Made by a program: the position numbers and the translations under genes
In this document: piece by piece, positions 2,525 to 58,107 of the stretch
Numbering within the stretch: the first letter of the stretch is position 1
Layout of the letters: every line of letters begins with the position of its first letter
Source: a phage
DNA: 64,000 bases
Reading direction: 5' to 3' (one strand)
Sequence record: PZ445526.1
The notes under the pieces: model-generated
The model's database searches: none
What the model was told of the DNA's origin: nothing
Seen by the model: only the letters and a program-made list of their open reading frames with translations

Positions 2525-3160
2525 TCATAGTTCAGATGCTACAGTGATTACAGCTTCAATGTTTTCTACTGAGCGTTTAATGTCAAGATACACATTACCG
2601 TTTTTAGCGATTTTACATGACATTCCGATGTCAGTAAATTTCTGAATATGATGTTCCATCATTTTGTATCCAAAAATTCGCATATTTCCATTGTTGTTAA
2701 TTTCAAAATTACGAATTCCGTGAGTGCGTTTTTCTAAAATAGCGAGATAGTTACTGCGATAAGTTTCAACCTTTTTAAGAACAAATCCATTTTCATCTAA
2801 AAGTTTTAACATGAAGTCTTTATCTTCTTCCATATCAGAAGTAATCTCACGAGCTTTACGAGTTGCTCGTTTTTTCAGCAGTTCCGGAGCATTTTCTTGT
2901 GCGTATAAAGTTGCTGCATTTGAAATAATATCCTGAGCTTCACCAGTAATGATTAATCCATCACCAGATTTCTCCACCAGGCCTTTTTTAATCAATACCC
3001 CAATATTACTATTAACTACTGCGTTACCTAAATCTGGATGCACCTCACGAACTTCTGCAGCTGTAATGAAATCTTTCTTAGCAATGGTAATTAAAATCGC
3101 AGCAGTTTTTTCATTCAGAACATCGTTAGAAGCTTTGATGATGTAAGTTACTTTAGACAT
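2525..3160 (-). CDS. motA: middle-transcription activator MotA
   Basis: 211 aa, MSKVTYIIKASNDVLNEKTAAILITIAKKDF...; matches remembered T4 MotA length and sequence; early promoter 3202-3231 upstream. Confidence 0.9.
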   Translation of the reverse strand: MSKVTYIIKASNDVLNEKTAAILITIAKKDFITAAEVREVHPDLGNAVVNSNIGVLIKKGLVEKSGDGLIITGEAQDIISNAATLYAQENAPELLKKRATRKAREITSDMEEDKDFMLKLLDENGFVLKKVETYRSNYLAILEKRTHGIRNFEINNNGNMRIFGYKMMEHHIQKFTDIGMSCKIAKNGNVYLDIKRSVENIEAVITVASEL

Positions 3161-3201
3161 TTTCTAATCTCCGTAATTCTGTATCAGTAGTTGATAGTTG
3201 T

Positions 3202-3231
3202 ATAGTACCATAGAATGCTTTGGTTGTAAAC
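3202..3231 (-). promoter_or_regulatory. early promoter for motA
   Basis: minus strand GTTTAC-N18-TACTAT with TGG extension; conserved leader. Confidence 0.6.
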
Positions 3232-6312: not shown

Positions 6313-6340
6313 TTTCTGTTCCTCCGTAGTTGATAGGGTA

Positions 6341-6370
6341 ATAATACCACAGAGGAACAGTCTTGTAAAC
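6341..6370 (-). promoter_or_regulatory. early promoter cassette
   Basis: GTTTAC-N18-TATTAT, TGG-extended; near-identical to cassette at 58078-58107. Confidence 0.55.
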
Positions 6371-6554: not shown

Positions 6555-6818
6555 TCATAGCTCAATCTCAGCGATTTTCATTTCATTACTATTAATAGCC
6601 GCTTTAAGACTATCTGAAAGAATTACATTCCAGTGGTCATTCATATGACCATTAACTAAGCGTGTAATTTCTTCAGGAGTTGAAAAATAAGGCTGATCAG
6701 ACTCCCAATGCGATAATCCTAAGCGAGTATAAATCATGCCTTCATCATCGCTAGAATATTCAACTGACACAAACTCATCAGTTATTTTATGCTTAGCATA
6801 ATAAAATTTAAATTTCAT
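6555..6818 (-). CDS. hypothetical protein (87 aa)
   Basis: Track ORF trimmed to ATG at 6818 behind leader SD GGAGAG; upstream early promoter 6853-6882. Confidence 0.5.
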   Translation of the reverse strand: MKFKFYYAKHKITDEFVSVEYSSDDEGMIYTRLGLSHWESDQPYFSTPEEITRLVNGHMNDHWNVILSDSLKAAINSNEMKIAEIEL

Positions 6819-6852: not shown

Positions 6853-6882
6853 ATAGTACCACGGTCCTTGTGGTATGTAAAC
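6853..6882 (-). promoter_or_regulatory. early promoter cassette
   Basis: GTTTAC-N18-TACTAT, TGG-extended. Confidence 0.6.
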
Positions 6883-13864: not shown

Positions 13865-14269
13865 TTATTCCTTAAAATGAGCTTTCAGCATCTGATACAA
13901 AGACCATGCTTGTTCATTATTTTCAATAGTAACTTTCATGACCGGGAATTCTGTGAAATCTTCTATCTGTTCTTGCTCTTCAGAAGCTTGGTATGGATTT
14001 TCCACTTCATCAAAGAACTCTGCTTCATTCGTGGAGAGCCAGATAAAGTTTTCGTCAAGGATATCAGCGCCGGCACAACGTTTGAGTACACCTGTGGATG
14101 TCACAATTTTAGTAGGACGACTTAGATGGTCAGCATCTAAAATTTTAAAAGGCTCCATACCTAAACGTCGTGCATAGATTCCGTTATCAGTATGGTCTTT
14201 AATAAAATTTTCTTGTGCTTGTTTATTTTTAAATTGATACCATTTATTAACTTCAAATTTAATAGCCAT
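13865..14269 (-). CDS. hypothetical protein (134 aa)
   Basis: ORF track, ATG start; stop abuts next ATG. Confidence 0.55.
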
Positions 14270-14484
14270 TAATAAATTTCCTTCCAGTAAGTTGTGCCGT
14301 CTTCAGTAATTTCACGAAATACACCGTAAATTGGCTGTTTATCACCGACTTTCTCATACACATAAACCGAAGTCAAGTGAGTAAACTTAACGGTATGTTC
14401 CTTTTGAACCACTACCAAATCTGGATCAAATAATACATCTTCAAATTCGTCATTAGTGCAATTCTGAACAATTTTACGTTTCAT
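14269..14484 (-). CDS. hypothetical protein (71 aa), possible cef equivalent
   Basis: ORF track, ATG start; size and position only. Confidence 0.5.
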
Positions 14485-14497
14485 TACAATTTCCTCA

Positions 14498-14770
14498 TTA
14501 ATTAAATAGTGGAGCGATACGTTTCAGAAGAGTAGCAACACCTTTAGCGAATTTTACATCATGAAAAACAGTTTCTTCTTCTGTAACAACACGAACTTTA
14601 ATATTTTCGCAATCCCAATTTTTGCGAACAATCTTCAAAAGCTGTAGTAAATCTTTACATTCAGCAATATCAATAACACATCCACGAGAATCTTCCATTA
14701 TCGCACGATAACCGTAAGCCATACCATAATCGTTGAAAGATTGTTCGATGATGATGATTAAGTTTTCCAT
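14498..14770 (-). CDS. hypothetical protein (90 aa)
   Basis: Track ORF starts at TTG inside leader; ATG at 14770 follows SD GGAGAA. Confidence 0.5.
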   Translation of the reverse strand: MENLIIIIEQSFNDYGMAYGYRAIMEDSRGCVIDIAECKDLLQLLKIVRKNWDCENIKVRVVTEEETVFHDVKFAKGVATLLKRIAPLFN

Positions 14771-14794
14771 TTTATTCTCCAAGTTGTTTTCTGT

Positions 14795-14837
14795 ATCAGT
14801 AGTTGATATTGATATAGTACCATAATCAACTACTGAT
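14795..14837. repeat. perfect 13-bp inverted repeat with 17-bp spacer
   Basis: ATCAGTAGTTGAT (14795-14807) / ATCAACTACTGAT (14825-14837); spacer contains TGGTACTAT -10-like element. Confidence 0.7.
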
Positions 14838-14867
14838 GTATATAGTTTTATGAAAAAATTTTAAACT

Positions 14868-15359
14868 TTATGCACAGCGAGCTTTGCTATAGTGTTTAAT
14901 CCAACTTTCAGGAATGACTTTGTATGTTCCTAAAAATACCACATTATACAACTTAACACCGTCTTCTACCCATTGATCGGTAATGTATGCACACATAGCG
15001 CGAGTACGATTAACAACACCTTCCTCACCTTCAGTAAATTCAAACTCATAAGGAGCAACGAACTTGATAGCTTGACCGAGTTTCCACTTAAAGTCTACGC
15101 CTACATGCGAAGTATCAATCGTTTCAATTCCTTTAGCAGGAACAGCTTTCAAAAACGCAGACTCAAGAAATTTCGCACGAACATAGCCAAACTGGGGTTT
15201 AGACTTTCCATCTTTAGGAATGATACGAACTTTTACTTCAGAATCTTCATCTTTAACACCATGCTTAAGCTGAATGCTTACAACTTCGACCAATTTTCCT
15301 GCTGCTTTAGAGCGGGATTTATCAGATACACGAGCTAATTCACCAATATTAATAATCAT
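14868..15359 (-). CDS. hypothetical 163-aa protein, probable MotB equivalent
   Basis: Size (T4 MotB ~162 aa) and position between gene 39 and dexA; early promoter 15403-15432 upstream. Confidence 0.5.
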   Translation of the reverse strand: MIINIGELARVSDKSRSKAAGKLVEVVSIQLKHGVKDEDSEVKVRIIPKDGKSKPQFGYVRAKFLESAFLKAVPAKGIETIDTSHVGVDFKWKLGQAIKFVAPYEFEFTEGEEGVVNRTRAMCAYITDQWVEDGVKLYNVVFLGTYKVIPESWIKHYSKARCA

Positions 15360-15402
15360 AGTTATCTCTCACTTGTTAAAAGATTTTATACTCCACGGGA
15401 CC

Positions 15403-15432
15403 ATTATACTCTGGTCCCAAAAGTTTGTAAAC
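15403..15432 (-). promoter_or_regulatory. early promoter for MotB-like gene
   Basis: GTTTAC-N18-TATAAT. Confidence 0.55.
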
Positions 15433-15866
15433 TAGCTTACACGAACATTAATCACTGCGCTACGAGGAACTACAGAGTATTCTCCAGCATGAACTACGTT
15501 CAGAAGTTCAACGCCATCTTCAATCCACTGGTCAGTTACCCAACCACCAATCGGATTCGCGAATGGACGACGAATGTAAACCGCCTTACACAACAAATCA
15601 GTCGGATCTTCAGGTTTTTCAATTTCTGTCAATAGATTAAAATCTTCTTCATAGATGATGAATGATGATACCCTTCCATAATAGTTTCTAATTTCCATGT
15701 ACACTGTACCAATGAGAATTCCGCTATTAACACTAATAACAGTAAAAGGATATCCGCCAGTTGTACCAAGAAGTTCCCAAAACTTGCTATCAGTCGTATT
15801 TGACATTGTCTGGAAATCAATTTCAGATGGTTTTTTCATTTGATACGCAGTATTAATTTTAATCAT
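15432..15866 (-). CDS. hypothetical 144-aa protein, paralog of the MotB-like ORF
   Basis: C-terminal motif TDQWIEDGVELLNVVHAGEY parallels TDQWVEDGVKLYNVVFLGTY in 14868..15359. Confidence 0.55.
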   Translation of the reverse strand: MIKINTAYQMKKPSEIDFQTMSNTTDSKFWELLGTTGGYPFTVISVNSGILIGTVYMEIRNYYGRVSSFIIYEEDFNLLTEIEKPEDPTDLLCKAVYIRRPFANPIGGWVTDQWIEDGVELLNVVHAGEYSVVPRSAVINVRVS

Positions 15867-15876
15867 GATTTTCTCT

Positions 15877-16377
15877 TTAATCTAAAGTAATAAAGCCTTT
15901 TAATTCGGCATGTGATTTGCGGAACATTACTTGGTGCCCGCCAATGATAACTTGATCATCTGGAACTTCGTATACAGCGAGATAAAATCCTTTAGAAGAT
16001 AATTCTTCACGCTCTTCTCGTGTGAACCATCTCATCATATCATATTCGCTAGCGAAAGCAAAATGATAAAGAGCTATAAACCATCCTGGAATATGATATT
16101 CTACTCCAACATAATCTTTCTTGAACTTAATATTAATTGCTATATTAGCATTTTTAACTAATAATTTGTCTTCGTGCGGAAGAGGAATTCTTTTATTATC
16201 ATTACTATGATGCATAAAATTAGGTCTGTCATAACCTACGTGTAATAACCACTCTTCGCTCCATGAATCTATTATACTCCTGTATGGCGTTATTTGAACA
16301 CAAAGATTTCGACGTATTGTTATAGCATCTTCATAATTAAGAATACTAAACGATGATTCAACACGATAAATTTTCAT
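15877..16377 (-). CDS. hypothetical protein (166 aa)
   Basis: ORF track, ATG start, early promoter 16405-16434 upstream. Confidence 0.55.
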   Translation of the reverse strand: MKIYRVESSFSILNYEDAITIRRNLCVQITPYRSIIDSWSEEWLLHVGYDRPNFMHHSNDNKRIPLPHEDKLLVKNANIAINIKFKKDYVGVEYHIPGWFIALYHFAFASEYDMMRWFTREEREELSSKGFYLAVYEVPDDQVIIGGHQVMFRKSHAELKGFITLD

Positions 16378-16404
16378 TTTATTATCCTCAGTAGCTATGG
16401 TGTT

Positions 16405-16434
16405 ATAATACCATAACTAACCGAGGAAGTAAAC
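16405..16434 (-). promoter_or_regulatory. early promoter cassette
   Basis: GTTTAC-N18-TATTAT, TGG-extended. Confidence 0.6.
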
Positions 16435-16440
16435 AACTTT

Positions 16441-17124
16441 TTATCGTTTTGTTGGAAGAGATAGAGGATCGCAATCTTCCTCTGATGGAGCATCTTCAAG
16501 ACCCATAGCATATCGCAAAGCGTACTTCATCATCAGGATGTCTTTCGCACAGTCATGAATAGAATCATGTGCAACGAATCCATCTAAAGTTCCCTTTGGA
16601 AGAGGACATGTGGTCATATCACGAACAAGGAGAAGTGCTTCAATTCTGGTACGAATATCACGCTGATTCCAGAATTTACATGGTTCTAGCTTAAATGTGT
16701 CAAGTTCATTCTCAGAAACACCATTAAGACGTTGAATATCACGAATTAGATCGACTAAAATTGGAAAATCAAACGACATTCCACGGCACCAGCCTTGAGA
16801 TTTCCAAGGATCGATATTATGCGCATTGATGTAATCATTAAATTTTGCAATACCATCGATGGTGCTTACATCTTCATCTGATGGTGCAATATTTTTTCGA
16901 GCTTCAGGAGATTGATTCTTCCACCATTCGATAGTACTTTTAGTAAAAAGACGATGTCCTTTTTGGCTTTTTAAATCAAATTTGATTTTAATGCCGCGTG
17001 AAACTAATTCATCAAATGTTTCAACTACTTCTGGGTTAGGGTCAAAAGCAATTACAGCTAAATCAATAACAGCTGCTTTTTCACCACTTCCCATTGTTTC
17101 AAAATCTATAATAAAATCAAACAT
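16441..17124 (-). CDS. dexA: exonuclease A (DnaQ-like 3'-5' exonuclease)
   Basis: 227 aa; DEDDh motifs (FDFIIDFETMG, HDSIHDCAKD); size matches T4 DexA. Confidence 0.85.
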   Translation of the reverse strand: MFDFIIDFETMGSGEKAAVIDLAVIAFDPNPEVVETFDELVSRGIKIKFDLKSQKGHRLFTKSTIEWWKNQSPEARKNIAPSDEDVSTIDGIAKFNDYINAHNIDPWKSQGWCRGMSFDFPILVDLIRDIQRLNGVSENELDTFKLEPCKFWNQRDIRTRIEALLLVRDMTTCPLPKGTLDGFVAHDSIHDCAKDILMMKYALRYAMGLEDAPSEEDCDPLSLPTKR

Positions 17125-58049: not shown

Positions 58050-58077
58050 TTTCTGTTCCTCCGTAGTTGATAGTTGT

Positions 58078-58107
58078 ATAGTACCACAGAGGAACGGTCT
58101 TGTAAAC
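58078..58107 (-). promoter_or_regulatory. early promoter cassette
   Basis: GTTTAC-N18-TACTAT, TGG-extended; near-identical to 6341-6370. Confidence 0.6.

Follow-up and report, generated by a model that had tools for sequence, protein, structure and literature searches.

A T4-type early promoter with an embedded palindrome between motB and cef in a Tequatrovirus genome: a candidate PeSL-type cassette

The DNA analysed here is a stretch of 64,000 nucleotides of phage sequence (record PZ445526.1, hereafter the window), which by its sequence belongs to a Tequatrovirus: 647 phage records match about 2.1 kb around the element under study, nearly all of them Tequatrovirus (T4-like) with 90-95% identity. 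The element is located in the 97-bp intergenic region between motB and a 90-aa ORF that itself lies upstream of cef. The cef gene starts 13 nt after this ORF, and the ORF has no second cassette flanking it. The motB stop codon and the stem of the palindrome are separated by 30 nt, and the GGAG of the ORF lies 6 nt before its ATG. A scan of both strands of 14200-16600 for terminator-like sites called none. The genes and features of the locus are listed below by coordinate.

13865-14269, minus strand: goF
14269-14484, minus strand: cef (PF24050)
14498..14770, minus strand: 90-aa ORF (phrog_3720) of unknown function, served by the predicted promoter of the element
14777..14780, minus strand: Shine-Dalgarno (SD) GGAG of the 90-aa ORF, 14 nt downstream of the stem
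14795..14807, minus strand: 3' arm of the hairpin, ATCAACTACTGAT, predicted +1 to +13 of the transcript
14814..14822, minus strand: extended -10, TGGTACTAT (TGn and TACTAT), in the apical part of the hairpin
14825..14837, minus strand: 5' arm of the hairpin, reading ATCAGTAGTTGAT, in the -35/-10 spacer at about -30 to -18
14837..14842, minus strand: -35 hexamer TATACA, one mismatch to TTTACA, gapless alignment with 12 sibling promoters
14844..14862, minus strand: A/T-rich UP element, AAAATTTTTTCATAAAACT, near-identical to the siblings at 3210, 33125 and 59525
14868..15359, minus strand: motB (PF17613, E 1e-100), the gene upstream of the element
15403..15431, minus strand: predicted motB promoter, TTTACA-17-TATAAT with 11/12 matches, from a consensus scan only

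The two arms, ATCAGTAGTTGAT (14795-14807, plus strand) and ATCAACTACTGAT (14825-14837), are perfectly complementary, and the 17 nt between them hold TGGTACTAT on the minus strand, so that the perfect 13-bp inverted repeat with a 17-bp spacer and a -10 element inside is present as the first-pass annotation of this DNA had claimed. Its picture of a stem holding the -10 in its loop is also real; TGGTACTAT lies in the apical part, which is made of a 5-bp upper stem and a 3-nt loop. The repeat continues inward, with 17 of 20 positions paired around the 3-nt loop; outward, the complementarity of the arms ends exactly at the 13-mer and does not reach into the cassette flanks. No other perfect inverted repeat of at least 12 nt with a spacer of up to 30 nt is found in the 64-kb window, and a 13-mer inverted repeat with such a spacer appeared in only one of 60 dinucleotide shuffles (mean 0.03); the 13-bp palindrome is not due to chance. 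As RNA of the minus strand, it is predicted to fold into 13 bp, a 2x2 internal loop and 5 bp (a stem of about 18 bp), the 47-nt core having a free energy of -20.2 kcal/mol (z about -6.5), and as single-stranded DNA the element folds with -11.5 kcal/mol (z -5.6). The stem is AT-rich, with G-C pairs at 4 of its 13 positions, and is followed by the tail ACAGAAAAC. A search of Rfam 15 gave no match to the element, the only hit being a chance snoRNA (E 0.8) far below the gathering score.

On the minus strand, the same sequence reads as a complete T4-type early promoter, composed of an UP element, the -35 hexamer TATACA, a 17-nt spacer, the TGn motif and the -10 hexamer TACTAT. The usual -35 had been thought absent and replaced by the palindrome, which proved wrong: TATACA is present at 17 nt from TACTAT in a gapless alignment with the siblings, and the inverted copy fills the spacer from -30 to -18, overlapping only the final base of the -35 hexamer. 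This spacer segment otherwise differs freely between sibling promoters. At the -35 position the target reads ATATACA and the siblings GTTTACA, while the UP element of the siblings ends in CACAAAACT and the target has AAAATTTTTTCATAAAACT in the same place; a TATACA -35 is also found at the orthologous Dhakavirus promoter. The 9-mer TGGTACTAT is identical in the siblings at 3210, 6861, 33125, 58086, 59525 and 63075. Against the strict TTGACA/TATAAT consensus, the target matches 8 of 12 positions plus TGn, and a simple promoter scan omits it. Given that T4 early promoters combine UP, -35, TGn and -10 elements (PMC2988021), a single mismatch in the -35 should leave the predicted promoter usable. 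From the usual distance of 7 nt after the -10, transcription would start at the A at 14807, which is the first base of the 3' arm. An antisense promoter within the palindrome was considered and rejected, as the plus strand has TATAGT with no usable -35. No promoter features are annotated at the T4 locus in GenBank M89919 and AF158101, and the MotB, DksA and GoF papers make no mention of this T4 promoter.

The 3' arm had also been described as a conserved leader segment, and this description holds: exact copies of ATCAACTACTGAT are located at 3183 and 33098, downstream of sibling promoters, this leader being common to the promoters near 3210 and 33125 and the exact 13-mer being found at three promoters. 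A Gaprivervirus-like contig (L008, 583-595) has the leader ATCAACTACTGAT behind a promoter-like site in front of another gene, so that the conservation of this initial transcribed sequence extends well beyond Tequatrovirus. A related observation concerns the 17-mer TATGGTACTATATCAAT, found in a conserved promoter-like context of unrelated IMG/VR contigs (L024, L026, L028, L029, L033, L034 and L037), where it precedes an ORF starting with MDNIGKRIKKER and is not accompanied by a palindrome.

The homologous locus was compared in relatives, as the first-pass annotation had proposed. T4 carries the identical promoter and palindrome at about 6582-6624 of NC_000866, in which position 6594 is the equivalent of 14807 in the window. 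Of 498 phage records, 434 share without any change the 53-mer that has the palindrome at its centre, and 63 more have one mismatch in it. Four of these single-mismatch variants were examined, three of them changed in the flank and one in an arm; in Shigella phage vB_SsoM_113, an A to G change in the 5' arm turns an A-U into a G.U pair, so that pairing is kept on the sense strand only. The 63 bp that run from TTTTTCAT to ACTGAT show no difference among 14 Tequatrovirus sequences, and variation is found outside this core, in the upstream T-run, in the leader just downstream and in motB. The invariance within the genus spans the whole promoter and so does not single out the stem, and there is no covariation to read within the genus, as every sequence fetched has the same 63-bp core. 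Promoters that are otherwise identical carry between 5 and about 10 T in the T-run of their UP element (14853-14858), a variation that could tune promoter strength or merely reflect slippage.

The genes on both sides of the element are less constant. T4 has an internal deletion in the 90-aa ORF, with the junction ATGGAAAA/TTCGC, which brings the element directly before cef. The same deletion junction, ATGGAAAA/TTYGCYAAAGG, is shared by T4 (L002, about 2990-3060) and other Tequatroviruses (L004-L007 and L040); the deletion leaves a short out-of-frame remnant, and the promoter would then serve cef directly. In RB6 (L017, 1387-1912) and GiZh (L041), the motB allele is divergent and is separated from the promoter by an extra motB-like gene; GCATAAA is repeated at the junction, and promoter and palindrome are unchanged.

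To look beyond the genus, the region after motB, or before cef, was taken from ten further lineages and each was folded. A MotB search of viral contigs gave 7 loci, and an annotated phage collection was used for other genera. The stems are as follows.

Dhakavirus (Bp7, E33): AGGGTAGTAGTG / TACTATTACCCT, with a -35 TATACA as in the window
Viral-contig locus L009: GGTAGGGTA / TACCCTATC
Marfavirus: GTAGGAGCATG / TATGCTCCTAC
Karamvirus and Moonvirus: AGGGCTATG / TATAGCCCT
Kanagawavirus: TGGTGTAGGACCATG / TATGTTCCTACACCA, 15-nt arms with one mismatch
Mosigvirus, upstream of cef: GGTCTATG / TATAGACC
Mosigvirus, after a second motB-like gene: TTCTCCTCTGGTT / AACCAGAGGAGAA, SD inside the 3' arm
Roskildevirus: 6-bp stem around TATTAT, with a canonical terminator after motB as well
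Jiaodavirus: CCACA / TGTGG, within the spacer
Gaprivervirus: GATAGGGTA / TGCCCTATC, with no recognisable promoter

In every lineage with a promoter, the 5' arm occupies the spacer, and the 3' arm is found at the -10 or beyond it; the sequences differ. The symmetry axis shifts between lineages, being located at about -14.5, at -11.5 or, as in the window, at -9, and the register moves by at most 5 nt. Between L009 and Marfavirus, three adjacent compensatory pairs lie beside a shared GTAGG/CCTAY core; the Dhaka-, Gapriver-, Marfa- and Karam-type stems have a GTAGG/CCTAY-like core in common and are therefore not fully independent. Since the stems use at least three registers, a formal cross-genus count of pairs on one structure was dropped in favour of a duplex test of own against other sequences, described below. 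The occurrence of different sequences with pairing kept argues for selection on pairing, and against a recombination scar or a fixed protein site. In Gaprivervirus (L010, L013 and L008), the motB-cef hairpin has no recognisable -35 or -10, which shows that the stem plays a part even where nothing is initiated; a late-promoter-like TATAAAATA is found just upstream of it.

The target is one of 13 canonical early promoters on the minus strand of the window, compiled from a listing of TGGTAYTAT-type sites and from their leader contexts, with 9-mers that start at 3210, 6349, 6861, 11138, 14822 (the target), 16413, 23477, 33125, 47401, 55109, 58086, 59525 and 63075. At least 13 cassettes of the window have UP, -35, TGGTAYTAT and leader blocks in common. 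Four of these promoters, namely the target and those at 6349, 58086 and 16413, have a strong hairpin that straddles the -10, with z at or below -3.5. An intrinsic terminator lies within 120 nt upstream of the -35 in 6 of the 13, none of which has an embedded hairpin, while all seven terminator-less promoters have a promoter-internal helix, which straddles the -10 in four cases and lies in the spacer in three. Helices of -14 kcal/mol or lower occur in 5/7 promoters without a terminator against 0/6 with one (Fisher p about 0.02); the spacer helices of 6861 and 11138 are weak (about -8 kcal/mol, z -0.2 and -1.5) and do not exceed those of some terminator-bearing promoters. Embedded hairpins and upstream intrinsic terminators are thus mutually exclusive among the 13 promoters of the window. 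This is consistent with a device of importance only at promoters reached by read-through from upstream, and it suggests that the embedded hairpin plays a role equivalent to that of an intrinsic terminator.

A wider sample was drawn from viral contigs, in which 120 unique GTTTAC-N15-TGATACTAT sites, some of them perhaps not real promoters, were grouped into 93 clusters. An embedded hairpin was found in none of the 7 with a terminator and in 19 of the 86 without, which is the same direction as in the window and, with so few terminators in the sample, is not significant. In the duplex test, the pairing of each spacer with the sequence downstream of its own site was compared with its pairing to downstream sequences taken from the other sites. 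Across the 93 clusters, duplexes of -10 kcal/mol or lower were formed by 20% of own pairs against 4% of mismatched pairs, and those of -14 kcal/mol or lower by 14% against 0.4% (Mann-Whitney p = 0.01 for own versus mismatched duplexes on cluster representatives).

Several observations bear on the level at which the stem may act. The sense RNA is more stable than the antisense in 9 of 10 orthologous or sibling hairpins, and in a wider set in 14 of 19 (p = 0.06), a trend and not proof. Two simple functions were considered for the target and rejected. The stem is not G+C-rich, no U tract follows it, and the scan calls no terminator on either strand, which makes classical intrinsic termination at the stem unlikely. 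Occlusion of the SD does not apply either, the SD being located 14 nt past the stem with a predicted probability of being unpaired of 0.36 in read-through RNA and 0.38 in promoter-initiated RNA, and the AUG being no less accessible.

Some sibling promoters behave differently in the same predictions. Those at 6349, 58086 and 16413 have spacer-versus-leader hairpins (6316-6360, 58055-58095 and 16385-16427, respectively, minus strand) with the SD within the 3' arm, following the logic of genes e, soc and 49 with early instead of late promoters. The predicted probability of an unpaired SD is 0.00 in read-through RNA for both 6349 and 58086, against 0.80 and 0.41 in promoter-initiated RNA; for 16413 it is 0.00 and 0.01, the model showing no relief. 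At 6861 and 59525, the SD of the read-through RNA is predicted to pair with the U-rich UP element (0.05-0.08 unpaired, against 0.62-0.70 in promoter-initiated RNA), which may be an effect of composition or a second way of silencing read-through translation.

Cassettes of this kind have been described as PeSLs, which are repeated units of an early promoter and a stem-loop upstream of small variable ORFs; five stem positions are known, including one between the -35 and -10 elements and one overlapping the -10, T-even phages carry AT-rich analogues on T4-type early promoters, and one RB49/phi1 stem-loop had terminator activity in a lacZ reporter (PMC2839356; PMC4122927). The target resembles them in having an early promoter with an AT-rich upstream region and a stem-loop straddling the -10, followed by an SD and a small ORF, as well as in the variability of this ORF (deleted in T4 and others), its intergenic location and the repetition of the motif in the genome. 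By these features of its sequence, the target can be classed as a PeSL. As for PeSL-style recombination, relatives have indels on both sides of the target, but the common ORF deletion has an internal, non-cassette junction. There are further differences: the PST/T4 stems figured in 2014 lie just upstream of the promoter, whereas the arms of the target are the spacer and the initial transcribed sequence; its stem is a perfect 13-mer with neither a G/C run nor a U tract; and terminator activity was shown for a single RB49/phi1 stem-loop, which is not of the target's type.

Another known arrangement is that of the T4 genes e, soc, 49 and I-TevI, in which a late promoter lies in the 5' half of a hairpin whose 3' arm sequesters the SD or AUG (PMC3014915). 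The target shares with them an internal promoter and a stem that only long upstream transcripts would fold, its own RNA being predicted to lack the 5' arm, but it has an early promoter, and its SD is located outside the stem and is predicted to be no less accessible in the long transcript. The intrinsic terminators of the siblings are likewise intercistronic stem-loops in the same class of cassette position and exclude embedded hairpins, though the stem of the target differs from them in being AT-rich, in having no U tract and in not being called by the terminator scan. The promoters of the coliphage N4 virion RNA polymerase are DNA hairpins with a 5-7 bp stem and a 3-nt loop, which act on supercoiled DNA with SSB. 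They are similar to the target in presenting a promoter element in a hairpin, but they are read by a phage polymerase, whereas the target is a standard sigma-70-type promoter for which the evidence favours folding of RNA.

The reading that we prefer, with a probability of roughly 0.55, is that the element is a PeSL-type cassette whose hairpin would form only in RNA reading through from motB and would stand in for a terminator. The predicted promoter would drive the 90-aa ORF, cef and goF, and its spacer (-30 to -18), normally free, has become the exact complement of the predicted +1 to +13. RNA from the embedded promoter would begin at the first base of the 3' arm and could not form the stem, and RNA from the motB promoter (the likely source of read-through being the predicted site at 15403..15431) would meet no terminator, carry both arms and fold in the cell into a stem that would start 30 nt after the motB stop and end 14 nt before the next SD. 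The hairpin would in this way take the place of the terminator stem-loop found immediately before the promoter in other cassettes and may serve as a 3'-end barrier or attenuator insulating the motB message, with the embedded promoter re-supplying transcription downstream of the stem. The exact fate of the read-through RNA is proposed with less confidence than the PeSL-type reading as a whole. Of the structure-regulated promoter suggested by the first-pass annotation, the stem around the -10 stands and recurs across genera, but the evidence points to a hairpin of the read-through RNA rather than to a promoter switch.

The stem might instead control the downstream gene according to the transcript isoform, in the manner of T4 e, soc, 49 and I-TevI; hindered ribosome standby binding, or a 5' protective stem after processing, could then make translation or decay differ between read-through and promoter-initiated RNA. 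A start on the first base of the 3' arm would indeed yield two leader isoforms, the paradigm is established for T4 late promoters (PMC3014915), and the siblings 6349, 58086 and 16413, together with the Mosigvirus promoter after the second motB-like gene, have the SD in the 3' arm with a predicted probability of being unpaired of 0.00 in read-through RNA; at the target, however, the SD lies beyond the stem with accessibility nearly equal in the two RNAs, and in Gaprivervirus a hairpin without a promoter would leave no second isoform, so that this control appears rather unlikely here. An element acting as DNA, either a cruciform or hairpin through which supercoiling would expose or conceal the -10, or an operator at which a dimeric protein of the phage or the host would shut the promoter, would account for the symmetry centre in the -10 region and for the significant single-stranded DNA fold; moreover, the shut-off of T4 early promoters is not fully explained (PMC3014915) and the PeSL authors speculated on a DNA-binding recombination protein (PMC2839356). 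Nevertheless, a stem whose sequence changes from genus to genus, with register shifts of up to 5 nt, is in keeping with pairing and not with a conserved protein site. G.U pairs make the sense strand the better folder, and the Gaprivervirus hairpin persists without a promoter. Promoters with a terminator upstream to stop read-through have no hairpin, an absence that is not expected of a DNA device intrinsic to the promoter. In addition, the 17-nt gap between the perfect arms disfavours cruciform extrusion. We consider a DNA-level role improbable, and the protein-binding palindrome proposed earlier is disfavoured in particular by stems that change between genera with pairing kept and by an arm variant that pairs on the sense strand only.

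The remaining explanations take the palindrome as a trace or a tool of recombination. It could be a neutral by-product, that is, a scar between cassettes or a quasi-palindrome perfected by template switching and too young to diverge, given that the 3' arm is a leader common to other cassettes, that PeSL cassettes recombine (PMC2839356), that relatives have indels at the locus (the ORF deletion and the extra motB-like gene in RB6 and GiZh), and that a perfect 13/13 match suggests a templated origin. Such an origin is compatible with later selection, though, and the cross-genus structure with its compensatory changes, as well as the enrichment of own spacer/downstream pairing over mismatched controls, speaks against neutrality, which has little probability in our estimate. 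The scar that the first-pass annotation had envisaged loses further ground because the UP element and the unusual -35 are orthologous across genera and not chimeric, the complementarity stops at the 13-mer and the element is identical in 434 of 498 records. Alternatively, the locus could be a recombination site for modular gene shuffling through PeSL mini-circles, with the stem as a recognition or hot-spot feature: in RB49/phi1, PeSLs border indels and give rise to mini-circles (PMC2839356), the presence of the downstream ORF varies, and some relatives have an extra gene upstream. The loss of the ORF is, however, an internal deletion at ATGGAAAA/TTYGC rather than a cassette exchange, the ORF has no second cassette beside it, and terminator exclusivity would be left unexplained; a recombination site is accordingly another poor candidate.

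A broader and rather doubtful reading is that promoter-embedded stems without a U tract are a distinct and general device of the Tevenvirinae early region, which would replace terminators in a non-classical way. Candidate modes of action are factor-dependent 3'-end formation or protection of the read-through RNA, and such stems could perhaps be read by phage RNA-binding proteins, e.g. the LSm-like GoF and MotB.1 of the same cluster. If this were true, the shifting register around the -10 would reflect selection keeping the stem out of the promoter's own transcript. A second and likewise improbable reading is a supercoil-sensing DNA hairpin at the -10.

The element reveals no new kind of system; it refines the picture of PeSLs and corrects the idea of a missing -35. 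Side results that may have separate value are the early-promoter hairpins that would sequester an SD, the exclusivity between hairpins and terminators, and the cross-genus conservation with register shifts. For the biology of these phages, the finding would mean that T4-like phages pack two signals into about 100 bp by recruiting the free promoter spacer as a stem arm, in such a way that the stem could be formed by upstream transcripts only. The exclusivity with terminators, together with the recurrence at one and the same locus in about nine genera with different sequences, leads to a hypothesis on how early cassettes may be insulated from one another, and since T4 carries the identical element, this hypothesis is directly testable in T4.
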